Under the pieces are notes generated by a model, which saw only the letters and a program-made list of their open reading frames with translations, did not search any database and had not been told where the DNA came from. A program made the position numbers and the translations under genes. Below are positions 2,888 through 40,372 of a stretch of DNA of 64,000 nt, one piece after another. The stretch comes from Candidatus Uhrbacteria bacterium (GTDB lineage Bacteria; Patescibacteriota; Patescibacteriia; UBA9934), in the NCBI GenBank assembly GCA_943350635.1, contig CALRAI010000001.1, positions 4,051 to 68,050 of the forward strand, read 5' to 3'. How positions within the stretch are numbered: position 1 is the stretch's first letter; every line of letters starts with the position of its first letter.

Positions 2888-3197
2888 GGTTCCTCCCTCC
2901 GCTTCGTGGCGACTCGGGTAAAAGTTTTTCTGCTGCGTCACAAGTCGTTACGCCACAACGGCTTGCTTCGCTCGCCTGTGGCTGGACTCCTGGAAGCCTC
3001 GCTGAAAAACTTTCACCACTCGTCCCCACTACGCTTCGGTCGATCGGTGAGCCTCATCCGATTCACTTGCGCTAGTGGCGAGGGTACATTTTTCCAACGA
3101 GCACGGGCCCTCCCAGCTGCAGGTGAGCAAAGCGAACCGTCGCAGCGTGAGGGATTCGCGCGGAGTGCAGAATAATGTACCCGAGCCACCAGCGAGT
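2888..3197. repeat. MITE-like palindromic intergenic repeat, copy A (full length)
   Basis: Terminal inverted repeats (…GTGGCGACTCGGGTAAA… / …TACCCGAGCCACCAGCG…). The internal halves are reverse complements of each other. About 85-90% identical to copies at 4262-4393 and 28645-28864. Confidence 0.6.
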
Positions 3198-7132: not shown

Positions 7133-7312
7133 TGTACCTGGTATAACTGTCATCTCCGCGCAGAGCTTGTCCTCGACCTGATCGGGGACGGGGATCCAGA
7201 GCGCAACATCAGGGATGGATCCCCGCATACGCGGGGATGACGGAAGAGGACGTGATGGAAAAGAAGATTTCCAAAAACATCATATTTCGTTATTGTGTGT
7301 GCTGGAGGTTTT

Positions 7313-7682
7313 CATGGCTACTCGCCGTCAACAGATTCGCACCACTGCAGAAATGCTCATCGTCGATTTCTTGCGGCAGCACGTGCCGCTCAACCAACAA
7401 CGCTCCGAATGGCGTTTCACATTCGCAGACATCGACGTGGCGTTTCATCGCTATTACCACGCAAGGAAAGACGCTCACAACGCTGCATGCGCGGCATGCA
7501 AAAGCGAGCATCACTGCGTGCTCGTGGACGCGCTCCAGGCGCTGTGCCCAAATCCCGTGAGCGGAGTTTCCATGATCTTCCGTGCCCACATCCTCGCGAT
7601 TGGCGAGTTCGACACCTTCACCGACTCCGGTACGCTCTTCCCCCCGGCCTTCGGCCCCTTCCGTCCGCCAGACGACTCGTAG
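7313..7682 (+). CDS. hypothetical protein (GC-rich insert)
   Basis: Only protein-like frame in the GC-rich block. The opposite-strand ORF is Arg-rich antisense-looking. No domains recognised. Confidence 0.25.
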
Positions 7683-7880
7683 AGACTGCGCGCCAACCGT
7701 CACCTGCCACGTCTTCAACGGAAGCCGTCGCGCAAGTGACGGTTTTCTGTTTGTGTCTGATTTGAGGGAGTGATGGATTGAAAAAGCGAAACGCACCCGG
7801 AGGCGGCACGTTTGCCGCGCGGGTGCGCAAGTTATCACTCAATGAACTGGACGGTGGACTGGTCGACGCACGACTGTTGG

Positions 7881-8360: not shown

Positions 8361-8608
8361 GGTGGACTCCAGTGCATTAGCACAGGGGGCGGAAATGCCC
8401 GTCTATTGGCACCACTGTATAGTGATGACTATGGACGGACATCGCTCTTTCAGTCTTCATCGTAACTAGTAATGATAGCGCAAAAATGGGCTTTTGTCAA
8501 CCAGAAATATGAAGAAAAGCCAATAAATACAGATATTTTACTGGAAATCGCCTGTGTACAAGTTTTGGGGAATTTTTGTAAAAGATTCGACGTTCCTGGC
8601 GGTGAGAT

Positions 8609-8932
8609 ATGTTAGAATTTAGCAAATACATTATGGAACTTCTCTTGTGGGATATTTACGAAATTCAATCTCAGTCCTCGCTTCACGGCGTGATGCTTCG
8701 AGGAAGACTGAGGAAATTTGCGAATCAACAAAGTATAAATCTCCTAACAGAAAATGAAGAAAACGGTGCGAGTGTACGCTTTGCAGTCCTTGCAGAATCT
8801 GATCCAGCTATCGTGACTACTTTTATCACGTCACTTGTTCCCGACGCTCACATCGAACGCGTTCGTGAGAAGGTATCGAATCCTGTTCTCTCTAAACTGC
8901 AAGTGAACGTCGATGACCGATATACGATTTAA
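8609..8932 (+). CDS. hypothetical protein
   Basis: Isolated AT-rich ORF just left of the island junction. No motifs recognised. Confidence 0.25.
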   Translation: MLEFSKYIMELLLWDIYEIQSQSSLHGVMLRGRLRKFANQQSINLLTENEENGASVRFAVLAESDPAIVTTFITSLVPDAHIERVREKVSNPVLSKLQVNVDDRYTI

Positions 8933-9012
8933 ATAGTAATATACAAAGCTTGGGCAACCAGTGGGCAACGAGAAAGAGAGAACAATAAAAATATCCAACA
9001 ACTGTTGGATAT

Positions 9013-9042
9013 TTTTGGTGCGCCGAGCGGGGATCGAACCCG
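9013..9042. repeat. distal att direct repeat (30 bp copy of tRNA-Lys 3' end)
   Basis: TTTTGGTGCGCCGAGCGGGGATCGAACCCG is identical to 19984-20013, which includes the 3' 27 nt of tRNA-Lys. Confidence 0.75.
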
Positions 9043-9400
9043 ATGATGGCAATTTACGAAAGATGAGCAATAACAGGCAAAAACGCAGGAAAAGCCATTG
9101 GCTGTTGCTGTTTCTCAATTCTCATAGTTACACATTGTTACTCGACAAAATACACAATCCATCACTTTATGGGCAACGGGTGGGCAACACCTCCGGGGAG
9201 TGATGGAATTTTGGCTCATCTGATTCGATGCTATCAATGACGATCAGATGCGATCTGGATTATGGAATCCGTTTGTTTATTTTAATTTCTCAATTCTCCT
9301 TATTTCAGTGGATGGAGCCTCTCCTCAAGAAAAGGGCAGCATGCATATCGGGTGATATACTTTGCAGAAGGATTGGCCCATTTAATTACTAAATACCCAT

Positions 9401-10105
9401 ATGGGCGATATAGAAGTGAAATACTCCTCCAGAGGGAAACAACCCCTAACCGCACAGAACCTTAAAACGAAGGGGTGGTGGAGATTCGCGCAAGTTATTT
9501 TTGTACTTGGATCAATTTTGCTGTTTGCCTTGACCCTCCTCTTTGCTGGTGCCGCGATTAGTGAAACCACTCCTCTCGTTCCCAGTGAAAGCTCGATTAC
9601 TTGCAACAATGGCCAGGTTTTTAACCTGAAGAGCTTTGATGAAAGTCTTAACATATACACGTACGGCTTCAGTCCTGTAGATAGTAATGGTCGATTCACA
9701 GACTATTCCGATGACGCAACAGCAAAAATGTTCTGCACAGCGTTGAACCGTGATCGCTTCGAACTCTCTCCTTTACCGGAAGGAAGCTCAATAACACCCG
9801 CGCGCAAGGCTGAACTTGATGCCATCATAATCAAGCAGCTTCAGAGTCAAACGCAAGAAGAGTGGGCTGCAAACATGACGAAAAATTCCGTCAGAAAGGC
9901 TAGTTATTCAGACCTCGAGGATATTCACTCTCGTGAGACTAGTAAGCAAGGTGAGAACATGGGCTATTCTATTGACGCAAAAAAGGATTATTCTGAGGTA
10001 TTCGTTATACTAGGCTTCTTCGTTTTAGCGTTGATCATCGAAGCAGGGCTTTTGTTTGTAGTAAGAGGAATTGTTCGGTACACACTTATTAGTAAGTTCT
10101 TTTAG
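9401..10105 (+). CDS. hypothetical membrane protein (N- and C-terminal TM)
   Basis: Two hydrophobic helices flank a Ser/Thr-rich extracellular region. Confidence 0.4.
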   Translation: MGDIEVKYSSRGKQPLTAQNLKTKGWWRFAQVIFVLGSILLFALTLLFAGAAISETTPLVPSESSITCNNGQVFNLKSFDESLNIYTYGFSPVDSNGRFTDYSDDATAKMFCTALNRDRFELSPLPEGSSITPARKAELDAIIIKQLQSQTQEEWAANMTKNSVRKASYSDLEDIHSRETSKQGENMGYSIDAKKDYSEVFVILGFFVLALIIEAGLLFVVRGIVRYTLISKFF

Positions 10106-10251
10106 CATTTTTCACGAATCGGGCCAGAAAGGAGCGTCATGAGAGCAAACTACAGCATTGCAAGAATGTATTACTCACGAATCTTTACCTTTTCCTTTTA
10201 CACGAACCATAAATTGGGCTGCGTGTGAGAAGGATTTCGTGTTTAGCGGAA

Positions 10252-10842
10252 CTATGAACTTCTGTTCTGTTCCGATTCATTGAGTACAAAACTAGCCCAT
10301 TGCGCTTTCATTTCTTGTTCTAAGAAATAATGACATGACCCAAAATAGCCGCGACAATACTTTTCGGTCAACCGAAGAAACAGAGGAGCTTTTACCTCGA
10401 TCATGAAACGACGGGCTTCTGGCGAAAGACCCTTAGATTGACGGAGGTTATCAGTCAAATCAGCCAGTTTTATACGCCAAGCATCTTCATCGTCCGCTTC
10501 GATCAATTTCGCCGTCATCAGCATCCAGCGCTCAGTGGAGTTTTCTATATCGAGCGGATGAGTGCCGAGTGCCACAAAGTGAATGGTTCGGTCAGTGAAT
10601 CCCATATCTCTAAGTTCCTGAAAGGAAACACCTCCATCTTCGACGACATCATGGAGTAATGCAGCAAGAAACAAGTCATCGTCGCAATCGTCACAATGGT
10701 GGCACGAAATAACGAGATCTCTCACTCGAAAGGAATGCAGATAGTTCGGTTCGTCTGGTAAGCTTTTACGAGTACCCTGAATACGCTCGCGAACGAGCGT
10801 CTCTGCCCTCCCTTTCAATTCTAAATACTGTGTGAGTTCCAT
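10252..10842 (-). CDS. HD-domain small alarmone hydrolase-like protein (SpoT/Mesh1-type HD)
   Basis: HSFRVRD…AALLHDVVEDGG…FG matches the (p)ppGpp hydrolase HD motifs H…HD…D of RelA/SpoT. 196 aa with no synthetase domain. Confidence 0.55.
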   Translation of the reverse strand: MELTQYLELKGRAETLVRERIQGTRKSLPDEPNYLHSFRVRDLVISCHHCDDCDDDLFLAALLHDVVEDGGVSFQELRDMGFTDRTIHFVALGTHPLDIENSTERWMLMTAKLIEADDEDAWRIKLADLTDNLRQSKGLSPEARRFMIEVKAPLFLRLTEKYCRGYFGSCHYFLEQEMKAQWASFVLNESEQNRSS

Positions 10843-11134
10843 ACAAAATACGTGAAGAATAAACGCAAAAGCGATTGAGAGATATGACCCAGATTGCTCT
10901 GGATGAAATCTCCCAACCGCTTAATGCAGTCAGTTCTCACATCGCTTGTGGCTCTCAGCAGATTTCCCTGATTGCCTACCCTCTTGGAGGGAGTGATGTG
11001 GGTGTTCGTCTTTACGACGGACGCACCTCTTTGCTCTTACTTCTTCACTATAACTGAAAAATGGGGTTTGGTCAAAGCATCCCAGTAAGCTAGAGTGATG
11101 TTTCGCTAATTTTATTCAGAGACTTTGTACTGGA

Positions 11135-12583
11135 TTATTCAATGCTTCCAGATGGTAGCTTTGTAAGATCTGTATTCGTTATACCCAAACCAAGCTCGCG
11201 CATGATTGAATACGCAGCTGAACCATCTTTCATGTAAACGCGAGTGCAAGTAGCCGGATCAACGTACCAAGCCTCTCCATGTTGCTCTACCTGAAGAAGA
11301 ATTGTTCCCCTCACTTGATTCGCGATTTTATTAGTTAGGCACACGTTTGGAGCATCTTTAATATCGGCAGCTTCCTCGACCGAGGGAATTGTTTCTAGAT
11401 CTTTATTGGTAATACCAAGGCCGAAGGATCGCATCATGTTATACGCGGTGGTTCCATCTTTCATATAATAACGTAGCGAATCTGATGGATAGATGTACCA
11501 TGCCTCGCCATGCTCTTCTACCTGGAGCAATATTGATCCTGAGAGGCGCTCAACTAAAGCCGTATCTAACTTTTCTGGGTCATAAGCTCCTGCAAGATCT
11601 ATATCTGTTGACGATGAGGAATCTATCGATTCGGTGTCAGTAGTATCTGTACTGACAGTCGCTGATGGTGTCGGAATGGAATAACTATACGTCCAGTAAT
11701 AATAACTGCTTCTATTTCCGTAGAGGTCTACTGCAGAGACATTAAGATAGTAGGTTCCTGGGCCATAAAGGGTCGCGAGACTGCCATTTGTGGTTTGATA
11801 TGTTCCGTACGTATAGGGATCTTGAGCGCTTGTTCCGAGATAAACATAATAGCCTGCAACCCCGCTCGCGTCTGATACCCCCTGCCAAGTGAAAAAGGGA
11901 GTCGAATCAGTTCCTGACTGCCAAGAACCAAGAGTTGACGCTGATGAATCTGCATAAACAGAAGCCGTGGCACTCGAAAAATCGGGTGCAGTAATGTCGG
12001 AATATGTATATGAAGAAGATGTGCTAGTCGAGATTGAATCAGAACTCCAGACCCGACATTCATCGTCCGAGTCAAAAAGATAGATTGTGTCGGAAATACC
12101 ATCAAGCGAATAACCTCCAATATCAATATAAATGTATTTATTTTCGTATCGCCACATGCTTAAACATCCAATCCCATACTCTACAAGGTAGTCATAACCT
12201 GATGTATCTTCAACTAAAATTTGATCAGATCCGATATCACTGAGTATGAAATATTTTTTTAAGTTTAGGGAATCAACCGAATTCACCGTACAGGCCTTTG
12301 TATCAAACATACCTTGAACAAGAATCGTATTTCCATATCCCGGAGAATAATAGGTATCAATCCAAAATGTCTCTCCAGTAGAGAAGTCAGAACTTGAGCA
12401 ATCCCAGGAATAGCCGATTTTATAATAAGATCCGTAACCGTCAGCGATAACTAGATCGTTGTAGGAGCTGCTCAATACTACAAAACCCTTAAGATTAGAT
12501 GCGAAAACATTCTTAATAGGCGCCAATATTGTAACCAGAATGCAGACAACGACTATCTGTAACTTAAAATTATTCATATACAT
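11135..12583 (-). CDS. secreted repeat protein with two C-terminal ~50-aa tandem repeats
   Basis: Signal peptide. Ser/Thr/Tyr-rich FN3-like middle region. C-terminal repeats SILLQVEEHGEAWYIYP…LGITNKDL and TILLQVEQHGEAWYVDP…LGITNTDL. Confidence 0.55.
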   Translation of the reverse strand: MYMNNFKLQIVVVCILVTILAPIKNVFASNLKGFVVLSSSYNDLVIADGYGSYYKIGYSWDCSSSDFSTGETFWIDTYYSPGYGNTILVQGMFDTKACTVNSVDSLNLKKYFILSDIGSDQILVEDTSGYDYLVEYGIGCLSMWRYENKYIYIDIGGYSLDGISDTIYLFDSDDECRVWSSDSISTSTSSSYTYSDITAPDFSSATASVYADSSASTLGSWQSGTDSTPFFTWQGVSDASGVAGYYVYLGTSAQDPYTYGTYQTTNGSLATLYGPGTYYLNVSAVDLYGNRSSYYYWTYSYSIPTPSATVSTDTTDTESIDSSSSTDIDLAGAYDPEKLDTALVERLSGSILLQVEEHGEAWYIYPSDSLRYYMKDGTTAYNMMRSFGLGITNKDLETIPSVEEAADIKDAPNVCLTNKIANQVRGTILLQVEQHGEAWYVDPATCTRVYMKDGSAAYSIMRELGLGITNTDLTKLPSGSIE

Positions 12584-12976
12584 AATTTAAATCTCTAGTA
12601 ACTCTTATCCAAAGTTTTTTAACCAATCATGAAAGTCTCGAATGATGGGTTTTCGCTTTCCAAGCTGTATAAACAAATGATCCTGACGAGCATCTTCTTC
12701 CTTTTGTTTTTGATCCCTTTCTTCTACAGTTTTCCGATATTCGATTTCACCGCGCAATAAAGCACGTCTCTCGGAACGGCAATGACCAGGTTTTATATAA
12801 AGAGTGCGTAAAACTTCTCAGGAAAAGAAATTTTCACACTCACGACATCCTATTTCTTTTGGGATTTTTCCCTCAGAAAACCACATCTGTGATTCATCAA
12901 TCTCATCATTACAAGCCGGACAGAGATATGTTGCGACTTGGAAAATAACCATATATAGGCTGGCGTAATTGATCGT

Positions 12977-13231
12977 TTATAAATTGTTGAAAAATCTTAC
13001 AACGATTGAGCCAAGATGGCTTGCAATAACGAATGCAATAATCATGCTTCCAAATCCAACAATCAAAACTAGCGCACTTTTTAAAACATTTGGCTTCTCT
13101 CCCTCAATAACAAGTCCTTCTATTTGTTTTTCAGAAGTCGGTTTCGCTTCTACTCCACAAGATGAACAGAATCTTGCGTTATCTATAGTTTTCTCTCCAC
13201 AATTCCTACAAAACATATATTTTACAAGCAA
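12977..13231 (-). CDS. zinc-ribbon membrane protein (small)
   Basis: CRNCGEKTIDNARFCSSCG double CxxC motif followed by a TM helix. Confidence 0.45.
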   Translation of the reverse strand: MLVKYMFCRNCGEKTIDNARFCSSCGVEAKPTSEKQIEGLVIEGEKPNVLKSALVLIVGFGSMIIAFVIASHLGSIVVRFFNNL

Positions 13232-13758
13232 TCAGCTTTACTAAATGATGCAAAATAACTTTGTCCCGTTTCACTGACCACATATGAATATTCCATATTT
13301 ATATCTCGGTTCAAAAGACTTTTTGTGTCACTATTTTGACAGAGACTTGTTCCAAGATAATTTTTCAAATATGCGTTTGAAAGACTGCTCGTATCCGCGC
13401 CAGTAAGGGTGTAATGATAACGAATAGCCCCGGGCTCTGCTGTAATGTCAGTAAGTGTTGTTAATTCATCCGTATGATACGGCAATGGCATGCTAGCCTT
13501 TGTTTGCCTAACTGTCTCGCTAATGAGTTCAGCTTTTGATGTGTTGCTTATGGAAGACGAAGAGATTCCTTGTGTTAAATAACGACCTACGCCGATTGCC
13601 AATATAGAAACGATAACAGAAATTACGCTAATAAACGTGGATTTTCTTTTTGTTCTTTCGACAGAGATGGCGGTTGATCCAGTAACAACTTTTTCTCCAC
13701 ATTTATTACAGAATTTTGCACCATCCTCAAGTTTATTGCCGCATTTTTTGCAATTCAT
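13222..13758 (-). CDS. zinc-ribbon membrane protein with extracytoplasmic domain
   Basis: MNCKKCGNKLEDGAKFCNKCGEKV, then a TM helix and a ~110-aa outside domain. Overlaps its neighbours, so operon-like. Confidence 0.5.
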   Translation of the reverse strand: MNCKKCGNKLEDGAKFCNKCGEKVVTGSTAISVERTKRKSTFISVISVIVSILAIGVGRYLTQGISSSSISNTSKAELISETVRQTKASMPLPYHTDELTTLTDITAEPGAIRYHYTLTGADTSSLSNAYLKNYLGTSLCQNSDTKSLLNRDINMEYSYVVSETGQSYFASFSKADCL

Positions 13759-13767
13759 AAAATATTG

Positions 13768-14088
13768 TTAGTAATCAAATGTTTCTTCGCAAACATACAA
13801 TCCGTTAGAACTATCGGGTACTTTACAATTCTTTCCGCACTCAAAGTCGTCGCTCGAATTATTTCGTTGCTGTTTTAGATTTGTAGCCCAGGAAAGACAT
13901 GAGGCGCGATCATCAAATTGCGGACTGTAAATGTATTGGTCTGTGCAAGCCAAGCAGCCATCAGGATAATAAAAACCGAGCCACGTTTCTTTTTGGGAAA
14001 GACAGCCTGCGCCAGACAAAAGCAAGGTGAGAATGAAGAGGGGCACGATTAGCGATCTTTTCATACTACTTCGATATATAGCTTCCAA
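13768..14088 (-). CDS. small secreted Cys-rich protein
   Basis: Signal peptide and 6 Cys residues. 106 aa. Confidence 0.4.
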   Translation of the reverse strand: MEAIYRSSMKRSLIVPLFILTLLLSGAGCLSQKETWLGFYYPDGCLACTDQYIYSPQFDDRASCLSWATNLKQQRNNSSDDFECGKNCKVPDSSNGLYVCEETFDY

Positions 14089-14992
14089 TAGCGGACTGTA
14101 GGAATGCGACGGCCTGCACGATGACGAAAATAAGCACCGGATTAATATCGACGAATAAACTTATAAACCAAGATATCACGAAAGTGAGGAGGAGGGATTT
14201 TATGATAGTTTGCATCGTCCAGCCCCCGCTGTGCTCTACTTTTGGCTTCTCCCTCTGATCGAGCAAGAATTCCAGATGCTTCAGTATTTCCGAACTGTTT
14301 CTGAATTCAAATTGGGAAATTCCGCAAAACTCTTGAGAACCCTGCTCAAAGAGCAGATCGTCAAAATTCTTTTTTACAAAATCAGCCTTTTCTTCTCGTT
14401 CACTATCTGAAAGATCTTCAGTTTTCTTGAACCAAATATTCTTTCCGTATTCGCTTTCCACGATTTGTAAGTCTGAGTCTGTGGCGTCCTTCACTTTATC
14501 CTCTATTCTATTTAAACCCATCTTTATCCTTTCGACCGTCTGCCTTAAATACTTTCTATAATCCTCTCGCGAGAGAGAATCCGAATGAAGAGAAAGGATG
14601 AAAAAGATCTCAGCATAAGACACGGCTAGATTTAACTTTTGCCATTCGATCTCCTTATTCAATCGCTCGAGAAGTTCTTTGCGATGGTACTCGGAGGGTG
14701 CCTCCAAGATGGACTCTAGCACTACGCCGTCTTTCACTTCTTCCTTTAGGGGCGGCTCGATGGATTTGTATTTTAAGCGAACGAAGACCTCAATCGGGTT
14801 TGTGTTTATTTTGTATTCGTAAATCTCGTTTATATAAAAACAGTCGTCATTTATGCTCCTGTGAGAATCGAATTCTTTCCTTTCTGGATAAAAGGTTAGG
14901 GTCAATGAGCTCCAATCATCATCAATTGAAATAGTCCTGTCTTCATCCATGACTTCAATGTTTGGAATGCTCATATTTATTTTGCAGTGCAA
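14066..14992 (-). CDS. hypothetical protein with C-terminal membrane anchor
   Basis: Charged coiled-coil-rich soluble region with a double TM at the C-terminus. Overlaps the flanking genes. Confidence 0.45.
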   Translation of the reverse strand: MHCKINMSIPNIEVMDEDRTISIDDDWSSLTLTFYPERKEFDSHRSINDDCFYINEIYEYKINTNPIEVFVRLKYKSIEPPLKEEVKDGVVLESILEAPSEYHRKELLERLNKEIEWQKLNLAVSYAEIFFILSLHSDSLSREDYRKYLRQTVERIKMGLNRIEDKVKDATDSDLQIVESEYGKNIWFKKTEDLSDSEREEKADFVKKNFDDLLFEQGSQEFCGISQFEFRNSSEILKHLEFLLDQREKPKVEHSGGWTMQTIIKSLLLTFVISWFISLFVDINPVLIFVIVQAVAFLQSAIGSYISK

Positions 14993-15873
14993 TGCTCGCT
15001 TAAGTAGTCATTGTACTTTTCAATTTGCTTATTATAAACGTCTATTTTGATCCGAAGAATATTTTCATCAGCTTGGTATAATCTCAAATCACCATTATAT
15101 TTGTCGACGAGTGAATTGTGCATTTCTATTTCAAAATCATCCGTCGAATCATAAATGTCATTTTCTATTTGTTTACGGAAAATATTCAAGTCAGCATCCT
15201 TTTGATCAAGAGACTTTCTTTCCAAAGATAACTCGGTACGCACAGTTTCTATTGGGGCCAGAATATCGGATTGTTCTGCGAAATAATTCGTACAATTATA
15301 TTCTCCTACCGTTACCATATCGTCATTCAGAATAGGATTAGAATTCACGGAATCAGTGCTGATTCCCGATAGACCGCCACCGAAAGATATCAAAGCGATT
15401 GCATAAATAGCGTCGAACCAGAAAATGCGCAATTTGTTCGCGATCCAGATCAAGACGACTAAAGGAAATGCGAGATAGTATAGGGGGCTTCCCCCGTTTT
15501 TGATCGCATTTTTACTAGAGCTATGAATATGCTCCATATCGTGATCACTTGGAAAGGAATGCATTCCCACCGAGATCGCTAGCCAAAGCAAAAAATACCA
15601 AAGGCCGCTTCCTGAAATTGCATTAGCTGCGATGAAGCTCAAGGCTACTGTACCTATTGAGTTCACCAATAACGGTCCGACAGAGATCCAGAAAGTCTGC
15701 TTGTATGTCTTTGGTTCTTCGTGTGAAACGTATCCTGCTGGATTTCCAAATTGAAAATAAACGACTTTATGGACACGAACGCCAAGATGATCGCAGAATA
15801 TTTTATGCGCCCATTCATGAACAACCACACCCGGGAACGTCAATAAAGAAATGAGCCAGCCAGGTATAAACAT
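14977..15873 (-). CDS. membrane zincin-like protein (HExxH in first TM; DUF3267/M50-like) with C-terminal coiled coil
   Basis: VVVHEWAHKIF motif inside the N-terminal hydrophobic region. At least 4 TM helices. Asp/His-rich loop. Coiled-coil tail. Confidence 0.45.
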   Translation of the reverse strand: MFIPGWLISLLTFPGVVVHEWAHKIFCDHLGVRVHKVVYFQFGNPAGYVSHEEPKTYKQTFWISVGPLLVNSIGTVALSFIAANAISGSGLWYFLLWLAISVGMHSFPSDHDMEHIHSSSKNAIKNGGSPLYYLAFPLVVLIWIANKLRIFWFDAIYAIALISFGGGLSGISTDSVNSNPILNDDMVTVGEYNCTNYFAEQSDILAPIETVRTELSLERKSLDQKDADLNIFRKQIENDIYDSTDDFEIEMHNSLVDKYNGDLRLYQADENILRIKIDVYNKQIEKYNDYLSEHCTAK

Positions 15874-15901
15874 ATTTTATTAACCTTACAATAACAGAAA
15901 A

Positions 15902-16042
15902 CACAAAGCCCGCCGCTAGCCGACACCTTGCGGTGTCCATACCCCTTTCGAGATATGACCATACAAAGGAAGCTGAACGACGGGTTCAGTACTTTGTATG
16001 GGTTTACTGCCATACCTCACGGTTGATCCGAGAGGGTTAGGC
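15902..16042. ncRNA. conserved structured element, copy 1 (nested hairpin CCATACAAAG…CTGAACGACGGGTTCAG…CTTTGTATGG)
   Basis: About 140 nt, alignable to 40373-40516 with compensatory changes in the outer stem. Lies in a divergent intergenic region of the island. Strand and function unknown. Confidence 0.4.
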
Positions 16043-16098
16043 AAATTCAATTTTCGAACGTTGTTATTATGGAATTTTTCGGCTAACGTTGTCAAAGA

Positions 16099-17010
16099 GT
16101 GAGGTTTATCGAAAGCTGTTTCGCGAACAAAGAATGCGTATTTATGAAGAATGCAAAAATAGTAATTGATGATTATTCCATTAGCCTATACACATCTCAT
16201 CTTAAGAGAGGAAATTACCGTGTCGGGGAAGTGATGCAGATATTGCTCTTGAGAAGCGACTTTAATGATTTTATATTGCGGTTAGAGTTGAGTGGACTTA
16301 CCCAGGTGGTGCCAAGTTCCGAAAATGAAGACAGTTGGATACATAACGGCATAATTACGCATAAACGTGTCGATGGCTATCTAGCGATAATATTGCAAAC
16401 TGATTTCTTTAAAAATCGTACAGAAATTTGGTTAATGAACTTTACCTCCATCGCAAAAAGAATACTCATAGAGTCCTACGCACGAGGAAGTGCTATGAAA
16501 TTGAGTCACAATGCGGAAGAAAAAATTGTTATTTCAAGCGATGATATTAACTACCCGAATATTTTATATTCATTGATTGAGATAGATGACGGCTTTCGTA
16601 AGATTCTAGATACGAATAAATTTGAGCAGGAACCGGATATGATGCCCATTTTTATAGAGAATGGTCGATTTTTTGAAATCAGCATCAATGCTCAAGTTAC
16701 GAAACCAGAGCTTATAAGTTTTATCGAAAAAAACTGGAGTGAAATAGAAAGAGATGTAAGGGGACGAAATCCTTCAGAAAAGAAAGAGAGAGCATCAAGT
16801 TCTTCAAATTTCTTACGTGATATTAAAATACTTAATAAATATAATGATTTTAAGAATGAAGGTTTTAAAAATCCGGATGTAAAAGTATTTTCCTGGTTAT
16901 TAAAAGAGGATCAGATAGAAATTGAGCCGAATACTGTGCGAAAAATAGTATCGAATCTTAATAAATCAATAAGAATGTTAAATAGCGATTCTTTAAAGGA
17001 TAAAATCTGA
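16099..17010 (+). CDS. hypothetical protein
   Basis: 303-aa ORF with a GTG start (an ATG at 16144 is an alternative). No motif recognised. Confidence 0.45.
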   Translation: MRFIESCFANKECVFMKNAKIVIDDYSISLYTSHLKRGNYRVGEVMQILLLRSDFNDFILRLELSGLTQVVPSSENEDSWIHNGIITHKRVDGYLAIILQTDFFKNRTEIWLMNFTSIAKRILIESYARGSAMKLSHNAEEKIVISSDDINYPNILYSLIEIDDGFRKILDTNKFEQEPDMMPIFIENGRFFEISINAQVTKPELISFIEKNWSEIERDVRGRNPSEKKERASSSSNFLRDIKILNKYNDFKNEGFKNPDVKVFSWLLKEDQIEIEPNTVRKIVSNLNKSIRMLNSDSLKDKI

Positions 17011-17133
17011 TACTCAACATTTTGTGCTAAATAAAATCGGCTATCTTTTCACGATTTCGTGAATTAATCTGGCTGCTTAAATTCGAACGACGTTCTATTT
17101 TTATAAAAGTACTCTCTCAAAGTACTTTTAATT

Positions 17134-17403
17134 TTGTTTATGCGTATGCAAGCAATATCGACAAATGACACGTTTCCTTCCCGCGATTGGGTACTTATCG
17201 CAACCCTCTCCTCCCTCGGCTTCCCGATTGAAGCCGTGGAGCAAGACTCACAGGCTCGGACAATCTTTCACATACAGCGCTCCGACAGCCTGGACGACGT
17301 TATACAGCGATTCTGGAGGCGTGAGCTGCGTGTTGAGCCTCAGGAGTTCAACCAGCACATGAAGCTCGTGAAGGCTCGCATGTATGACGCTAAGATTTTC
17401 TAA
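17134..17403 (+). CDS. hypothetical small protein
   Basis: 89-aa ORF preceded by the palindrome AAAAGTACT-N7-AGTACTTTT at 17096-17121. Confidence 0.35.
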   Translation: MFMRMQAISTNDTFPSRDWVLIATLSSLGFPIEAVEQDSQARTIFHIQRSDSLDDVIQRFWRRELRVEPQEFNQHMKLVKARMYDAKIF

Positions 17404-17427
17404 GACATTCAAAATTAATGCGTATAT

Positions 17428-17979
17428 ATGGCGAGAAAAAGAATGCTTCACGCAAAGATCTGGGACAGCAATCAATTCAACTCATTAAAACCACTACTTC
17501 GTTTACTTTACATAGGTTTGGTCACTATCGCGGATGACTATGGCTGTTTTCGTGCAGAGGGCACGTTTCTCAGGCGAAAGCTGTTACATTCAGACAGGAT
17601 TAGCCCGGCACAAATTGATGCAATGTTGCAGAAAATTAACGAAGTTGGATTGATTGAATATCGTCAAACAGAATTCGGTTCCATCGGCATTCATCCGAAG
17701 TGGGACACGTATCAGAAGCTCCGTAAGGACATTGCTAGGTCTAGCGACTTTCCTGACCTCGACGTATACGCCATGGATCTGCCATGGCTACGTGACGTCA
17801 ACATAAGAGAAGACAAGATAAATAAAGAAAGCTCAGAATCAGGGGAAGAAAAGAGAATTGAAATTAGTGAAAGAGAACTTGCGCCGATCTTCTCCGGAAG
17901 AGAGCAGACAGAGCGGGCTCTGGCTGCATTCAAGAAGAAACAGAAAGAGAAACTGAATCCATTCTCTGATCTTCTATGA
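17428..17979 (+). CDS. hypothetical protein (possible winged-helix DNA-binding/replication-associated)
   Basis: ORF immediately upstream of the xis/int module. The assignment is speculative. Confidence 0.4.
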   Translation: MARKRMLHAKIWDSNQFNSLKPLLRLLYIGLVTIADDYGCFRAEGTFLRRKLLHSDRISPAQIDAMLQKINEVGLIEYRQTEFGSIGIHPKWDTYQKLRKDIARSSDFPDLDVYAMDLPWLRDVNIREDKINKESSESGEEKRIEISERELAPIFSGREQTERALAAFKKKQKEKLNPFSDLL

Positions 17980-18533
17980 GTAAAAACTCTTGTGACGATT
18001 ATCAGAAATTATCAGTGTATCGGCTTCGGGATTTTGGATGCTTTTCATACTCTTCTTCGCATGATCTCTCCTGGGGGAAAGGTGAAAATCGGAGCAGTAT
18101 CGGCCTCACCACCTTCCTTGAAGACGATCCTATAAGAATGAGGCTCAGCTATATCTACTCCAGCCGATACAGTGATCGAAAGCTATCGGTGGACGATGAT
18201 GTTCTACTATCAAAAACTCAATGTCATTTCGGTGGCGTTCGTTGGTGGATGCATTGCCCGGTGCTTCGTAATAGCCTGCCATGTAATCGACGTACCGCAA
18301 TTCTTTTCATGGTTGGTGGCCGATTTGGATGCAGAGATTGCCATGATCTTACCTATGAAAGCCGAAAGATCAGGCCATCGCTACGGCCGTATCTCTCACT
18401 TCTTATACCAATGACCCTCGATCAAAAGTATGCACGTTCCCGATACTGGAAAGGGCGAAAAACCAAGCGAACTCGAAGAATAGATGCAAAGTGGGATGCG
18501 TGGGAAGAACCAACGGGATTAATGAACTTCTAA
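17976..18533 (+). CDS. hypothetical Cys-rich (zinc-binding?) protein
   Basis: CHFGGVRWWMHCP…CNRR…CRDCHD cysteine/histidine cluster. Overlaps the upstream gene by 4 nt. Confidence 0.4.
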   Translation: MSKNSCDDYQKLSVYRLRDFGCFSYSSSHDLSWGKGENRSSIGLTTFLEDDPIRMRLSYIYSSRYSDRKLSVDDDVLLSKTQCHFGGVRWWMHCPVLRNSLPCNRRTAILFMVGGRFGCRDCHDLTYESRKIRPSLRPYLSLLIPMTLDQKYARSRYWKGRKTKRTRRIDAKWDAWEEPTGLMNF

Positions 18534-18614
18534 TTATTTCGATCGTGTAGAATGGGAGCGTTGCTCATTGAGGAAGAAATTCCTCCCTGGAACGTCGCTC
18601 CTTAACAACTAAAT

Positions 18615-18863
18615 ATGACCAAAGATGAAAATCTCGCTTCTGAGAGTAGTTTTCTGAATCCACTTGAACTCGCTGAACTGCTACGACTCTCGCGTGCTAG
18701 CGTGTACCGCCTCGTGGAAAGGCGAAAGATCAGCTTCCATCGATTACCGAGAGGATTGCGGTTTAGTAGAAGAGATATTGATGGCTACTTACAGAAATGC
18801 AGGGTTGAATCTTTGGAGGATGTATATGAGCGCGAGAAAAATAAGACAAAGCTGGTGGGTTGA
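18615..18863 (+). CDS. xis: excisionase/AlpA-family HTH DNA-binding protein
   Basis: LELAELLRLSRASVYRLVERRKISFHRLPRGLRFSRRDIDGYL is a typical Xis/AlpA HTH_17. Directly precedes the integrase. Confidence 0.6.
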   Translation: MTKDENLASESSFLNPLELAELLRLSRASVYRLVERRKISFHRLPRGLRFSRRDIDGYLQKCRVESLEDVYEREKNKTKLVG

Positions 18864-19953
18864 TTTCCGCTTCGGATTTCAACGCTACCGTATACGCAGT
18901 CCAGAATGCAGTCGTGCTGGAGCGCAAGCATATGAAGCAACGCTTCGAAAGATGCTCGCCGCTGGGGAGAGTATTGATGAAGGTCAGAAAAAGTTAGTGA
19001 AGTTTCAAGACTTTGCCGCCGATTGGTTCCGGGTGTATGTGATGAACAATAACAAGTTATCAGTACAGCTAACACAACGAGGCATACTCGATATCCATCT
19101 ACTCCCACACTTCGGTAAGTACGGACTCCCGGAGATCACATCACAGGTGGTTGAACGTTATAAGGCAAAGAAGACCAACGAAGGACTTGCGCCAAAGTCG
19201 ATTAACAATCAACTTGGAGTACTCCGACGATGCTTGCAGATTGCTATGGAATGGGGCTCGCTTGATAAGCTCCCTATGATCAAGATGCTCAAAACTCCAC
19301 CACCTGTCGTTATATTCCTCAACGAGGCTGAATGTAAGGCTCTCTTAGCGGATCATATGGAACCAATGGCGAATCTGATGATTCTGACTGCGTTGCGCAC
19401 TGGGATGCGTTTGGGTGAGCTGTGTGGCCTATCGTGGGAGGATATCGACTTCAAGAGCGGGATTCTTACCGTAAGGCATTCGTTCGTTCGGGGTGAAATG
19501 AACTCCCCCAAAAGTAATAAGATCCGACATATTCCGATAACAGCCGATTTAACCGAAGCTTTGAAGAAGAGCGCAAAACCCTGTGGCCTTGTCTTCCACA
19601 TCGATAAGAAGCCGATCACGGGCTATGCAGGCTCGGAAATACTCGGTCGTGCATGTATTCGTACGGGTATAAAACACATCGGTTGGCACAAACTCCGTCA
19701 TACCTTCGCTTCACAGCTTGTGGCGCGTGGAGCGAACCTGAGGGCTGTTCAAGAGCTCCTTGGGCACTCAACGATTCAAATGACGGAACGATACGTGCAT
19801 CTCGCTCCTTCGTCGCTCCGACAGGCGATGTCAGTATTGGAAGAAACACCAAAGGGAGAAAGTTTGGGCAACCCGTGGGCAACGGCACTTATTCAACAAG
19901 TACGTTATGAAGCGTTACCAAAGCTCAAAATGACCATGAATGTTGGGAAATAA
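18826..19953 (+). CDS. int: tyrosine-type site-specific integrase
   Basis: N-terminal SAM-like domain. Catalytic R…HKLRHTFAS…LGHSTIQMTERYVHL (R-H-R-Y). Adjacent to tRNA-Lys. Start taken at MSARKIRQSWW. Confidence 0.9.
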   Translation: MSARKIRQSWWVDFRFGFQRYRIRSPECSRAGAQAYEATLRKMLAAGESIDEGQKKLVKFQDFAADWFRVYVMNNNKLSVQLTQRGILDIHLLPHFGKYGLPEITSQVVERYKAKKTNEGLAPKSINNQLGVLRRCLQIAMEWGSLDKLPMIKMLKTPPPVVIFLNEAECKALLADHMEPMANLMILTALRTGMRLGELCGLSWEDIDFKSGILTVRHSFVRGEMNSPKSNKIRHIPITADLTEALKKSAKPCGLVFHIDKKPITGYAGSEILGRACIRTGIKHIGWHKLRHTFASQLVARGANLRAVQELLGHSTIQMTERYVHLAPSSLRQAMSVLEETPKGESLGNPWATALIQQVRYEALPKLKMTMNVGK

Positions 19954-19986
19954 AAAGATTCCGATGCCATTAACATCAGAATCTTT

Positions 19987-20061
19987 TGGTGCGCCGAGCG
20001 GGGATCGAACCCGCGACCACGAGCTTAAAAGGCTCTTGCTCTACCACTGAGCTACCAGCGC
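19987..20061 (-). tRNA. tRNA-Lys (anticodon TTT)
   Basis: Folded by hand as a cloverleaf: acceptor GCGCTGG/TCGGCGC, anticodon loop CTTTTAA, T-arm GGTTCGATCC, encoded CCA. Confidence 0.85.
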
Positions 20062-20085
20062 ATGGGAGAGCTTCCTCGTTTTGTC

Positions 20086-20197
20086 TATTTTCGGCTTGCC
20101 ACGTCGTTCGCGAACGACGTGGCTTGCTGCGTCGCACATTCGTTCAACGTACTAAGAAGTACGTCTCACGAATTGTGCTCCTGGCGCACCGAAACTA
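20086..20197 (-). promoter_or_regulatory. conserved upstream element (copy upstream of tRNA-Lys) with an extra 24-bp perfect palindrome
   Basis: Same GTTTCGGTGCGC…GAGACGTAC-N6-GTACGTTGA…GCAAGCCGAAAAT as the ybaB and HU copies. CCACGTCGTTCGCGAACGACGTGG is inserted at 20098-20121. Confidence 0.45.
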
Positions 20198-20278
20198 GCC
20201 TAAAACGCGAAAGCTCTCATATAAATCTCGAACAAATAACGTGCGCAGGATATCAGATTCGGGGGAATCTGTGAAGGT

Positions 20279-33861: not shown

Positions 33862-33898
33862 CTATGGTCCGGGAAATGTATGGTAATTCGCGTGTGGC
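33862..33898. repeat. degenerate att-like repeat (tRNA-Gln 3'-end-like plus GGTAATTCGCGTGTGGCGA)
   Basis: TGGTCCGGGAAATGTATGGTAATTCGCGTGTGGCGA versus TGGTTCCGGGACATGGATGGTAATTCGCGTGTGGCGA at 35121. Confidence 0.4.
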
Positions 33899-33901
33899 GA
33901 A

Positions 33902-35120: not shown

Positions 35121-35138
35121 TGGTTCCGGGACATGGAT
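35121..35138. repeat. 18-bp exact copy of the tRNA-Gln 3' end (att-like)
   Basis: TGGTTCCGGGACATGGAT is identical to 43494-43511 (tRNA-Gln 3' end). Confidence 0.6.
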
Positions 35139-35228
35139 GGTAATTCGCGTGTGGCGAGCGAGCTCGCCGCGCGAATGACATCCGTATCCCGTACGCCGCG
35201 GTGCGGCTGGCCAGCGTGCGCTGGCGAA

Positions 35229-35266
35229 CCATAAAAATACCAGCCGTGGGGCTGGTATTTTTATGG
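35229..35266. terminator. perfect 17-bp-arm palindrome (bidirectional terminator-like)
   Basis: CCATAAAAATACCAGCC-GTGG-GGCTGGTATTTTTATGG. Confidence 0.55.
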
Positions 35267-35620
35267 TTCTGCGGCCCGGTCTAGATTGAAGCCTTTAAGG
35301 GGACTTTGGGGCACCCTTCTCCCTGCTCACCAACCCTGTTCCGGTCGCATAGAACTGGAGAGTGAAACTGGCAAAAAATGGAATATAGGCCGGAGGGTAA
35401 AATGAGACAAATGAGACACTACATGGGCTGTTTCAAACGACTGTCTCACACACTAACTTTTCGGCTTATGTTCGCCTAATTCTGACGGTAAAGTGGTTTA
35501 TTTTTGACTGTCTCATCTTCCAATTGAATAAAGTCGAATTTCGCCAGTCTCTGCGTCCTGCGCCACGTTGTCGATTAGGCGCTTCATTCCGTCGAGATAG
35601 ATAGTTGGCACTCACTGATC

Positions 35621-36574
35621 CTATTTAAATGGCTTTTGAAGTTTTGATTGCACAACTTCGCTTATTTTATGGGCATCCCCGTGGCTCAACATGCCAAGAT
35701 ACGAGGATACGGATTCCTCTTTGCTCTCTGTTCCAAGATTATTCATCATTCTGCGTTTGGTGGTCGTACGAAGAACCCGATGATGCGGAAAATGCACCCA
35801 GCCTAGGAAATCAATTCCCGAGGCGATTGTGGCAATGGAGACTTTGTTTGGGTGCAACGCGAGGTGTAACCGTGACTCTAAAAATTCAGCGATCTGCGGC
35901 AGGAGATGTTCTAAATATTCTCTGCCTTCATGCAGGACGACAAAATCGTCGGCGTAGCGGATGTAATGTGCTGCCTTCAAATTGCGCTTTATGAAGTGAT
36001 CAAACACGTTCATGTAGATATTGACCAAAAGTTGGCTCGTAAGGTTACCGAGCGGAAGTCCGACGCCGGGCCTGCCGTCCGTGTGAAAACTCCCGATCAC
36101 TTCCGCGAGGAGCCAAAGAATATCTGTGTCGTTGACATGCCTTTTGATGACGTCGAGGAGAATCGCATGATCGATGTTGGCAAAGAACTTTCGTATGTCG
36201 CATTTCAACACCCAAGCGGTACGGGTGTGGTTTTTGGAAACCTTGGCGGCAAATTCTCGAAGACGATTGATTGCGCGATGCGTACCCCTCCCCTCGCGAC
36301 AGGAGTACGAATCAAAAATGAATTTACGATCGAAGAATGGATATAGGATTCGATAGATTGCGTGATGCAGGAGCCGATCACGGACGGTCGCTTTATGAAT
36401 ATCCCTTGGCTTCGGGTCGTTAATCTTAAAGGCATGGTATCCGCCGTGCCGGTAGGACCTATTGGCGAGGTCGCCGTGCAACGCGACGAGATTATCCATG
36501 AGGCTTGCCGCGAAGAGGGCAACGTCTTCCCGTTTCCTTTTTCCAGACAAAAACTCCTGCCAGGCGGCAAGCAA
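35621..36574 (-). CDS. diversity-generating retroelement reverse transcriptase
   Basis: RT motifs including YADDFVVL, and the DGR-specific LGNLTSQLLVNIY (GxxxSQ in place of group II QGxxxSP). 317 aa. TR/VR pair nearby. Confidence 0.85.
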   Translation of the reverse strand: MLAAWQEFLSGKRKREDVALFAASLMDNLVALHGDLANRSYRHGGYHAFKINDPKPRDIHKATVRDRLLHHAIYRILYPFFDRKFIFDSYSCREGRGTHRAINRLREFAAKVSKNHTRTAWVLKCDIRKFFANIDHAILLDVIKRHVNDTDILWLLAEVIGSFHTDGRPGVGLPLGNLTSQLLVNIYMNVFDHFIKRNLKAAHYIRYADDFVVLHEGREYLEHLLPQIAEFLESRLHLALHPNKVSIATIASGIDFLGWVHFPHHRVLRTTTKRRMMNNLGTESKEESVSSYLGMLSHGDAHKISEVVQSKLQKPFK

Positions 36575-36622
36575 ATTTTCAACAGAAATGATATCCTGAT
36601 ACGTACTATGGAGCCGCGCCCT

Positions 36623-36667
<45 letters not shown>

Positions 36668-36708
36668 CCGGAAGCGCGTCGATTCTCCAGCGCGTCAAAG
36701 AGGGATAT

Positions 36709-37032
36709 TTGGTTTGGATGAACATTGCGCCGCATATTGCAAAGGGTGCGCGTTTTACGATTGGCGCCAGGATTGAAAGTAAGTTTCTCGACCTGTTGGA
36801 GTTGAGTTACGCCGCCTATTTTACCGACAAAGAAAAGAAGGTTGCAAAGATTGCCGAGTGTGTCTTCGTGCTCGATACGCTCAAGTTTCTCATCACCACA
36901 GCATGGGAAGGAAGACTGATAGCCAATAAGCAGTGCGAGGACGTTGCCAAAAAGCTGGACGAGATCGGCAAGATGTTCGGGGGCTGGAAGAAGAATCTCG
37001 AAAACCCTGAACGAAAAAACCGCGCCATGTAA
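36709..37032 (+). CDS. Avd-like four-helix-bundle protein (accessory variability determinant / 23S rRNA IVS protein family)
   Basis: …KFLDLLELSYAAY…LKFLITTAWEGRLI…EDVAKKLDEIGKMFGGW resembles the C-terminal two-thirds of TIGR02436-type proteins. TTG start in the ORF track (an ATG lies at 36718). Opposite strand to RT, TR and target. Confidence 0.45.
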   Translation: MVWMNIAPHIAKGARFTIGARIESKFLDLLELSYAAYFTDKEKKVAKIAECVFVLDTLKFLITTAWEGRLIANKQCEDVAKKLDEIGKMFGGWKKNLENPERKNRAM

Positions 37033-37046
37033 GCGCGGAATCAAGC

Positions 37047-37183
37047 ACTTTCGAAGACGGAAGACGAACTCATTGTTCGCATTCCACTTGTTCGTCGGCT
37101 TCGCCCAATTGTTGTTGAGCCACGACCCATCGTCATTGCGTTCCACGTTGAAGACGTTCGGGTTGCCGTCCGAGTCGGATTGC
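37047..37183 (-). repeat. DGR template repeat (TR)
   Basis: About 135 nt that aligns to 37507-37640. Every one of the ~17 mismatches is an A in TR (coding strand) versus C/G/T/A-change in VR. AAC/AAT-rich (NNNWAKPTNKWNANNEF). Confidence 0.85.
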
Positions 37184-40313: not shown

Positions 40314-40372
40314 ACGAATATGAATGTTAATAATAAGCGAACTTTCGAGTGATGCTGGGTGAGGCTTTATAG

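Follow-up and report, generated by a model that had tools for sequence, protein, structure and literature searches.

A 64-kb stretch of DNA from contig CALRAI010000001.1 of Candidatus Uhrbacteria bacterium contains a tRNA-Lys(UUU) gene, which is directly adjoined by approximately 11 kb of AT-rich DNA. This locus raises the question of what kind of element this DNA is, by which mechanism it entered the tRNA gene, and what it carries. The stretch is referred to as the window, and all coordinates of the island are given in window numbering. The region 9013-20013 is very probably an integrative genomic island, which resides in the tRNA-Lys(UUU) gene of a Candidatus Uhrbacteria-like member of Patescibacteria and entered it by lambda-type integration in the manner proposed below. 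An initial annotation had interpreted this region as a tRNA-targeted integrative element, and this interpretation is supported by the unique repeat, the intact integrase, the excisionase-type gene and the foreign base composition. The LOOT RNA, the replication-type backbone, the pairs of arm sites, the assignment of a palindrome as the putative tRNA terminator of an older island, and a second island at tRNA-Gln go beyond that annotation.

Ends, integrase and candidate integrase sites of the island

The tRNA-Lys(UUU) gene, which is the integration target, is located at 19987-20061 on the minus strand (ARAGORN). All of its 75 nucleotides are the same in the window and in the four related loci L057, L001, L003 and L004. 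The 30-mer TTTTGGTGCGCCGAGCGGGGATCGAACCCG is present in exactly two copies in the window, as determined by direct reading and by pattern search. One copy is the distal attachment site (att) at 9013-9042, and the other is the proximal att at 19984-20013, which lies within the intact tRNA-Lys. The repeat includes most of the T arm, runs through the 3' acceptor strand, the discriminator base and the encoded CCA, and extends 4 nt past the tRNA gene. Integrases that target tRNA genes customarily cross over in this region. Thus, the direct repeats represent the 3' end of the tRNA, such that one copy completes the intact tRNA and the other is distal, with the integrase gene (int) adjoining the tRNA. 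The initial annotation had raised the possibility that the 30-mer is a common dispersed repeat. Within the window, this is not the case. Only these two copies are found there even when three mismatches are allowed, and shuffled sequences predict none. The repeats enclose 10,941 bp of DNA with a GC content of 0.419, as compared to 0.519 for the flanks, and the island measures 10,971 bp from repeat start to repeat start (9013-20013). The coordinates of the exact duplication that brackets the AT-rich DNA, as given initially, are therefore confirmed.

The gene at 18826-19953 on the plus strand encodes a tyrosine integrase of 375 amino acid residues, which is assigned by Pfam, alignment and structural model. 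The open reading frame (ORF) matches PF00589 (2.8e-33) and PF14659, and the true start is probably the ATG at 18826, as in the 91%-identical homolog P0001. In an alignment of 36 homologs, Arg195, Lys229, Arg291, His314 and Tyr323 are invariant, and His288 of the His288-x-x-Arg291 motif is nearly so, such that the full catalytic set is present. The AlphaFold model built on this alignment has a predicted local distance difference test (pLDDT) score of 86. In this model, strands at residues 3-6, 9-16 and 19-24 and a helix at residues 30-45 are followed by the core-binding and catalytic domains, and the predicted N-terminal beta3-alpha domain (residues 3-45) has pLDDT values of 80-88. The best Foldseek matches of the model include Tn1549 Int (7e-16) and full-length lambda Int, which is aligned over 348 columns. 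Because of the N-terminal sheet and helix in the model and the full-length alignment with lambda Int, the predicted architecture of the integrase is of the lambda-type, with three domains (heterobivalent). The initial assignment of a tyrosine integrase next to an intact tRNA-Lys is thus corroborated.

The gene at 18615-18863 on the plus strand is a candidate for the Xis-type recombination directionality factor, as judged from Pfam, PHROG and its position beside int. Its product matches the helix-turn-helix (HTH) family PF12728 HTH_17 (1.6e-11) and phrog_66 (6.9e-7), which is labeled in PHROG as 'excisionase and transcriptional regulator'. In the Pfam scan, the AlpA family model gave no match to it. 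Thus, of the earlier designation of this gene as AlpA/Xis-like HTH gene, the excisionase-type HTH part holds, but the AlpA part does not. The HTH_17 gene overlaps the start of int, and in 33 related loci an HTH_17 gene immediately precedes int. It is therefore likely, from this arrangement and the family assignment, that this gene encodes the excision directionality factor of the island.

The 8-mer TGGGCAAC is present in nine copies in the window, as compared to 2.15 expected. Six of these nine copies form three pairs with 11-bp spacing, all on the plus strand, at 8951/8962, 9170/9181 and 19865/19876. The pair TGGGCAAC-N3-TGGGCAAC at 19865-19883 (plus strand) is located in the 3' end of int, 101 bp before the core, and represents the candidate P-arm pair. 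The pair of the same structure at 9170-9188 (plus strand), 128 bp inside the distal att, represents the candidate P'-arm pair. When the island forms a circle, these two pairs would sit on either side of the core as P and P' arms. The third pair at 8951-8969 (plus strand) is located 44 bp outside the distal repeat and is read as a P-arm remnant of an older island. Two related complete islands, L063 and L076, contain other 8-mers. In L063, both arms carry TGTCTACC pairs at equivalent places. In L076, the 8-mer is TGGCCACA, which forms a pair on the P arm and is present as one full and one partial copy on the P' arm. The P' sites of these two islands are located 125-139 bp inside the distal repeat. 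Element-specific 8-mer pairs are thus present on both arms, and co-vary between islands, in three of three complete islands. Within the integrase family, the variable C-terminal tail of the protein contains FGQPVGN, SLGNPWAT or FWATGGQ, which correspond to the three reading frames of one DNA motif. Because the same motif is kept in all three reading frames, its conservation acts at the DNA level. We interpret the TGGGCAAC pairs as candidate arm-type sites, to which Int would bind.

A palindrome abuts the distal repeat. The initial annotation had reported it with 9-bp arms at 8991-9012. The palindrome is real, but its arms are longer, with 14 nt each (8987-9000 and 9003-9016) and 100% complementarity. 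Folding of the region 8987-9016 on the tRNA strand (minus) gives a terminator-like hairpin of 13 bp with a U-run behind it, which comes immediately after the distal att, with a folding free energy (dG) of -14.2 kcal/mol and a z score of -6.1. This hairpin would terminate tRNA-Lys after excision of the island. A second hairpin with a U-run, supplied by the island, is located at 19943-19987 on the minus strand, behind the CCA end of the intact tRNA (dG -17.9, z -5.7). It is also formed on the plus strand (dG -12.4). As predicted from folding, this hairpin replaces the terminator of tRNA-Lys and can also terminate int on the plus strand. A hairpin is present at the same place after the CCA in the islands of L057 and L001 and in the empty site of L003 (dG -22.5), and therefore each island would bring a replacement terminator for its tRNA.

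The left flank of the distal repeat, 8471-9012, is 542 bp long and has a GC content of 0.40. The region of the 8951-8969 pair is identical at 24 of 26 positions to 19859-19884 in int, and the order of the features in 8471-9012 is that of the right end of intact islands, namely site pair, stop codon, hairpin and att. Because the low GC content, the site pair and the feature order match an intact right end, this region is read as what remains of the right end of a related tandem island of earlier date, which would have been displaced outward by the present one. A search for att remnants revealed no further att copy left of 9013.

Relatives of the island and occupancy of the tRNA-Lys site

The 13 kb right of the tRNA are syntenic with six Candidatus Uhrbacteria/Patescibacteria genomes, and the P-type ATPase encoded there is 68-70% identical to proteins of metagenome-assembled genomes from Candidatus Uhrbacteria/Patescibacteria. 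A protein identical to the 185-residue protein of the island is found in GCA_964792595.1 and in ENA and Logan assemblies from several samples, always in the same integrated arrangement. The loci L057 and L058 encode an integrase that is 91% identical to that of the window, and their backbone (corresponding to 17106-20063) shows 85% DNA identity and lies beside an identical tRNA-Lys. The cargo of L057/L058 differs, with S8 and trypsin-like peptidases and tetratricopeptide repeat proteins, and the host flank differs as well. L001 contains a 73%-identical int at the same tRNA-Lys. In a profile scan, 80 related int loci were detected in metagenomes. Wherever the locus contains a tRNA or transfer-messenger RNA (tmRNA) gene, int is immediately followed by this gene, which is encoded on the opposite strand (tRNA-Gly, tRNA-Glu and tRNA-Ser; tmRNA in L151). 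The complete relatives L063, with 29-bp repeats at tRNA-Gly, and L076, with 30-bp repeats, have the same arrangement as the window. Relatives that lack flanking repeats and a tRNA had been named at the outset as a finding that would contradict an integrative element. The relatives instead lie at the 3' ends of tRNA or tmRNA genes, two of them with 29-30-bp repeats of their own tRNA.

An empty tRNA-Lys site in related genomes, which had been suggested as a check, is found in L003. The order of features in L003 is MurG, region A, tRNA-Lys, hairpin and ATPase, and the island is absent. Because the MurG of L003 is 87% identical to the flanking MurG of L057, and because L003 has the same tRNA-Lys without the island, L003 is, by this comparison of sequences, the empty-site counterpart of L057. 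The distance from region A (approximately 7215-7838 of the window) to the ATPase is approximately 0.7 kb in L003 and 12.4 kb in the window. The region 7215-7838 itself is GC-rich and contains long ORFs on both strands. A protein of the L057 flank matches its minus strand (44% identity), and the plus ORF is matched in L003 (37% identity).

Additional observations were made at this site. In L004, a 25-bp duplicate of the tRNA-Lys 3' end lies approximately 180 bp downstream of the intact tRNA (copies at 8917-8941 and 9100-9124), and a hairpin follows each copy. This duplicate is likely the scar of a lost island, and therefore tRNA-Lys would be a recurrent hotspot in this clade. The tRNA-Lys gene and a promoter-like region (TTCACA-17-TATCCT, 20275-20247 in the window) together form a unit, which is located at 19987-20275 in the window, 9690-9958 in L003 and 8800-8937 in L004. 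With the ATPase as reference, L003 and L004, which contain no island, have this unit in the opposite orientation to the window and L001, which contain one. Either an independent small inversion or an inversion of the tRNA together with the island would account for this difference. The Logan contigs L146 and L147 (at their ends) and L150 (at its start) stop within tRNA-Lys at the anticodon, and not at the 30-bp repeat. These stops may reflect a second tRNA-Lys gene or a strain sharing the same 3' half. Such contigs were considered as alternative junctions and rejected, since they stop at the anticodon with attR sequence and are uninformative on excision. The exact left flank with att gave no match in the metagenome scan, which would catch the occupied as well as the empty site.

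Backbone, cargo and LOOT RNA

The backbone comprises int and the genes between it and the LOOT RNA, all of which are located on the plus strand. The gene at 16099-17010 encodes a protein of 303 residues (288 residues from 16144 in the public gene call), which has no family match and is fast-evolving, with 33% identity to its L057 counterpart. It is followed at 17134-17403 by a gene for a DUF5659 protein (PF18903, 8.7e-8), which is 87.5% identical in L057. The product of 17428-17979 resembles replication initiators and replisome organizers, as indicated by PHROGs and tblastn. It matches phrog_1408 'replication initiation protein' (9e-14) and four further replication PHROGs, and is 26.5% identical by tblastn to a 'replisome organizer' of an Acinetobacter phage (1e-6). 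The gene at 17976-18533, the start of which overlaps the stop of the replication-like gene, encodes the 185-residue Cys/His zinc-finger protein. This protein contains the invariant sequence GGVRWW.CP..C.RR...FGC..CH.LTY.S and has no PDB or fold match, and a homolog is encoded beside LOOT in L069.

The cargo is located between the distal repeat and LOOT. The initial annotation had regarded all of it as uncharacterized. However, several genes can be assigned (DUF3267, zinc-ribbon and HD hydrolase), as can one RNA (LOOT). The first gene after LOOT, 14977-15873 on the minus strand, encodes a membrane protein of 298 residues with several transmembrane (TM) segments, which is a putative zincin peptidase of the DUF3267 family (PF11667, 3.4e-8) with the motif HEWAH. 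It is followed on the same strand by genes for a 308-residue protein with a C-terminal TM region (14066-14992) and a 106-residue protein with a signal peptide (13768-14088), neither of which has a family match, and for zinc-ribbon and TM proteins of 84 and 178 residues (12977-13231 and 13222-13758; PF13240, 1.5e-6 and 2e-7). The gene at 11135-12583 (minus strand) encodes a secreted or surface protein of 482 residues with a signal-like N-terminus. Its C-terminus is 82% identical to that of the S8 peptidase of L057 and 50% identical to an L063 cargo protein. A duplicated C-terminal domain of approximately 70 residues (GSILLQVE.HGEAWY..P....RYYMKDG..AY..MR), which belongs to no Pfam family, is encoded at 11098-11540 in the window, 75-513 in L057 and 5910-6311 in L063, and is thus common to otherwise unrelated cargo, namely the 482-residue surface protein, the S8 peptidase and a 484-residue protein. 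The 196-residue product of 10252-10842 (minus strand) is an HD-domain phosphohydrolase that resembles the RelA/SpoT hydrolase domain, as indicated by Pfam, PHROG and TIGR. It matches phrog_990 metal-dependent phosphohydrolase (1.3e-15), PF13328 HD_4 (4.9e-5, below the cutoff) and, partially, TIGR00691 spoT_relA (6e-8). From these matches, a small alarmone hydrolase is possible. The gene at 9401-10105 (plus strand) encodes a 234-residue protein with TM-like segments at both ends and no family above threshold. TM or signal-type segments are present in seven of the eight cargo products, the eighth being the HD hydrolase, and in none of the backbone proteins.

None of the 14 island proteins belongs to a virion, terminase or lysis family in Pfam, PHROG and NCBIfam. 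No relaxase, type IV coupling protein or type IV secretion system family was found among the island proteins in these general family scans, in which the transfer origin oriT was not searched for. PADLOC gave no match to known defence systems for ten island proteins. Because virion, terminase, lysis and conjugation families are lacking, the element is probably an integrative island, and not a prophage or an integrative and conjugative element. It is probably replicative as well. Thus, the island/prophage architecture proposed initially holds as a tRNA-targeted island, but not as a prophage.

LOOT is an RNA motif of Rfam (RF03000), described by Weinberg et al. 2017 (PMC5737381) and listed as a metagenome-based RNA in the Rfam 14 paper (PMC7779021). 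No paper linking LOOT to islands or to the candidate phyla radiation (CPR) was found in a literature search, the reach of which did not include the supplement of the discovery paper. A full-length LOOT RNA is encoded at 15922-16043 on the minus strand (91.5 bits as compared to the gathering threshold of 46.4, E 7e-17). It is located between the cargo and backbone halves of the island, 48 nt upstream of the first cargo gene and co-oriented with it. The best sigma-70-like promoter match in the island, TTGACA-18-CATAAT (11 of 12 matches), is located at 16066-16095 on the minus strand, and would start transcription approximately 15 nt before LOOT. By eye, similar promoter hexamers are present at the same distance from LOOT in L057, L063, L143 and the second LOOT copy of the window. 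The 185-bp LOOT block is 91% identical to that of L057, and the genes on either side of it are replaced or only 33% identical.

Of the ten best int loci from metagenomes, six contain LOOT. A covariance model of our own, built from the copies found in int loci, gave no further matches in the 80 int loci and no match in 791 kb of unrelated control loci, and it detected a second copy in the window at 40395-40517. By pattern scan, LOOT was found on two IMG/VR viral contigs, L143 (IMGVR_UViG_2708742991_000001) at 2928-3050 and L139 at 2421-2538. Across 11 LOOT sequences, 94.1% of the cells in the 35 modelled pairs are standard, with compensatory double changes at 24 of the 35. None of 500 shuffles reaches the observed level, and slid controls are 31-41% paired. 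LOOT is co-oriented with the next gene in 11 of 11 cases, and this gene, with its start assigned mechanically, begins 17-55 nt downstream or overlaps the 3' end of LOOT. Its product is usually a membrane protein or a zinc-ribbon protein.

A conserved extension, GCTGGCG..GGGCTTTGTG, with a hairpin directly follows the 3' end of the Rfam model in the window (15880-15921, minus strand) and at ten other loci, and an ACAAyTkAA-like motif is located just 5' of the model in LOOT loci. The Rfam model may thus be shorter than the real RNA. A conserved protein partner of LOOT was considered and rejected, since its divergently encoded neighbours in different elements are not homologs of each other. A retron-like noncoding RNA, considered because a reverse transcriptase (RT) gene lies downstream in L078 and in the second island of the window, was also rejected generally, since the main island has no RT and the RT of the second island belongs to a classical diversity-generating retroelement (DGR) with its own template repeat (TR) and variable repeat (VR).

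This second island, approximately 8.4 kb in length, is located at 35121-43510 of the window. An 18-bp repeat, TGGTTCCGGGACATGGAT, of the 3' end of tRNA-Gln(ttg) is present at 35121-35138 and 43493-43510. In L001, tRNA-Gln is located 90 bp from a conserved neighbour gene. No integrase was found in the second island. Its full-length LOOT RNA (40395-40517, minus strand), which scores 77.7 bits with the Rfam model (gathering threshold 46.4) and 69.2 bits with our own model, is located directly upstream of, and co-oriented with, a gene for an OB-fold (tRNA_anti-like) protein at 39834-40433. Thus, both tRNA-associated islands in the window carry LOOT at the head of the cargo operon. The cargo behind LOOT consists mostly of envelope proteins, and in the second island includes the DGR, which occupies 35621-39744 on the minus strand and consists of RT, TR and VR. 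The RT (35621-36574) matches phrog_1423 (3.5e-108). The TR of 132 nt is located at 37048-37179, and the VR at 37501-37632, at the 3' end of a gene for a 753-residue protein (37483-39744). All 18 differences between TR and VR are located at TR adenines. The second island also contains a gene for a protein with ParB_N and N6_N4 methylase domains (41461-42825) and a methylase fragment (42785-43393). The LOOT-containing viral contig L143, of 8.6 kb, encodes a large terminase (Terminase_6C) and a ParB-methylase that is 33% identical to that of the second island. The sequence at 33868-33900 is 94% identical over 33 nt to that at 35125-35157, and corresponds to a degenerate att and the first 19 bp of the left end of the second island. 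This repeat suggests that a tandem remnant of approximately 1.25 kb lies beside the second island, as is the case at tRNA-Lys.

Kind of element and comparison with known systems

The features described above can be arranged into the following mechanism. A lambda-type heterobivalent Int would have recombined the core site of a circular element with its 30-bp counterpart, identical in sequence, at the tRNA-Lys(UUU) 3' end, thereby duplicating the core and rebuilding tRNA-Lys, for which the island would have supplied a new hairpin terminator. The N-terminal beta3-alpha domain of Int would bind the 11-bp-spaced TGGGCAAC pairs on the P and P' arms, and the HTH_17 protein would direct excision. The excised element would probably replicate by means of the replisome-organizer-like gene, and the island may be mobile at the present day. 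The promoter and LOOT would head the leftward variable operon, with LOOT acting as a 5' leader for expression of the cargo. An earlier related island at this site would have been pushed outward, leaving 8471-9012.

Several results weigh against this interpretation or parts of it. Neither a circular junction nor a same-strain empty site was seen in the public contigs with an identical element that were inspected, which contain the integrated form or break inside the tRNA. Because the unit of tRNA and promoter in the window is inverted as compared to that in L003 and L004, the comparison with the empty site is not one of simple insertion. No close relative of the island integrase was found in the scan of viral contigs, and the related int of L001 is not accompanied by the TGGGCAAC motif. 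The match between the replication-like protein and phage initiator profiles is confined to the N-terminal half of the latter, and an origin was not identified. Many related int loci lack LOOT. Of the 11 closest that have enough flank, approximately 6 contain it, and it is missing from L076, L151 and L153. Furthermore, LOOT is filed in Rfam as a free small RNA (sRNA), and the T-rich stretch behind it may be a terminator, such that its role as a leader is only putative.

Among the other explanations, a phage satellite similar to phage-inducible chromosomal islands (PICIs) or P4 is unlikely. Such an int-xis-replication element would be packaged by a helper phage of the same host, with LOOT acting in cross-talk between helper and satellite. 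The length of approximately 11 kb, the presence of int, xis and a replication-organizer-like gene, and the lack of structural genes fit a satellite, and the replication genes of related LOOT islands, Prim-Pol/AAA_25 or AAA_25, are of kinds typical of satellites. LOOT is also found on the IMG/VR contig with large terminase and ParB-methylase. However, no small terminase, capsid-remodelling, head-size or helper-interference gene is recognized in the island, no helper phage is identified, no cos or pac site is found, and the cargo consists mostly of envelope proteins and not of packaging functions. A defective or cryptic prophage remnant, which has lost its structural genes, is immobile, and retains the repeats merely as part of the tRNA, is improbable. 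The failure to see an excised form or a same-strain empty site is expected of such a remnant, the similarity of the replication-like protein to a phage-type replisome organizer points in the same direction, and 8471-9012 indicates that such elements decay at the tRNA-Lys site. However, the distal repeat, which is outside tRNA selection, is still identical at 30 of 30 positions, including four non-tRNA bases. In addition, int, xis and the backbone ORFs are intact and show 72-99% amino acid identity (185-residue protein 72%, Xis 99%) to an element in another host background with different cargo, and no virion genes lie between LOOT and int in L057, L063, L067, L069, L071, L072 and L078. Because an intact backbone is similar across hosts and is combined with different cargo, recent transfer of the backbone as a unit is argued.

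It is also very improbable that the locus is a composite, in which the cargo block and the int/replication block arrived separately and the 30-bp repeats delimit an array. Tandem accretion at both tRNA sites, as seen in the remnant 8471-9012 and in the third att-like copy at 33868-33900, would be compatible with a composite, as would the contrast between the backbone, which is 85% identical to that of L057, and the cargo left of LOOT, which is unrelated to that of L057. However, no internal att copy with three or fewer mismatches is found. The P' pair at the cargo end matches the P pair in int, so that both ends belong to this integrase, and the mosaic is accounted for equally well if cargo was exchanged by recombination at the conserved LOOT/promoter block.

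Mobile elements of Patescibacteria (CPR) are poorly described, and this island represents a clean and complete example, with both ends, arm sites, terminator and an empty-site comparator. Its relatives use different tRNAs and tmRNA. Patescibacteria are thought to live attached to other cells, and a cargo that encodes almost entirely envelope proteins would be relevant to organisms with such a mode of life. The island also assigns the orphan LOOT RNA to a host lineage and a genomic context, and suggests a role for it that can be tested. As a hypothesis suggested by its position, LOOT is a promoter-proximal leader or operon-start RNA of the variable cargo operon on mobile elements of Patescibacteria. 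A broader proposal is tentative and rather doubtful. According to it, LOOT would be a leader RNA of Patescibacteria mobile elements and not a free-standing sRNA, serving as an 'expression platform' that joins the conserved int/xis/replication backbone to freely exchanged cargo and that is shared by tRNA-integrated islands and phage-like genomes. It could then be a processive antiterminator, a riboregulator or a signal in cross-talk between phage and island, and together with the int-embedded arm sites would define a distinct family of CPR integrative-replicative islands.

The HK022 put RNA and the EAR element, which are operon-leader RNAs of mobile elements that license long transcripts, serve for LOOT only as an analogy. 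Like them, LOOT would be a structured RNA that directly follows a promoter and opens a long multi-gene unit of a mobile element. Unlike for them, antitermination by LOOT is purely hypothetical, and no likeness in sequence or structure is claimed. As compared to the Rfam family, LOOT of the window is a full-length covariance-model match with multiple hairpins, GNRA-type loops and compensatory changes. Beyond the family description, it is found in a Patescibacteria host, on tRNA-integrated islands and phage-like contigs, with a promoter-like site ahead of it and a 3' extension. The island resembles PICIs and P4-like satellites in size (approximately 10-15 kb for satellites), in the int-xis-replication module at one end, in the lack of virion genes and in the variable accessory genes, but differs from them in that it has no recognizable packaging or helper-interference genes and no known helper, and in that its cargo encodes mostly membrane or secreted proteins.

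Islands and prophages with lambda-type tyrosine integrases are well known at the 3' ends of tRNA or tmRNA genes, and include P4-like elements, those with P22/HP1-type integrases and islands of the Islander/TIGER type. The integration mechanism is the textbook one, and the island is of this well-known kind. Like such islands, it has int beside the tRNA, a repeat that regenerates the tRNA gene, an Xis-type HTH gene upstream of int, a predicted three-domain Int, candidate arm-type sites on both arms, foreign composition and tandem accretion at one tRNA. Unlike them, it resides in an uncultured Patescibacteria host, its candidate arm sites overlap the 3' end of int and are conserved in three frames, it appears to bring a replacement terminator, and it carries LOOT at the head of the cargo operon.

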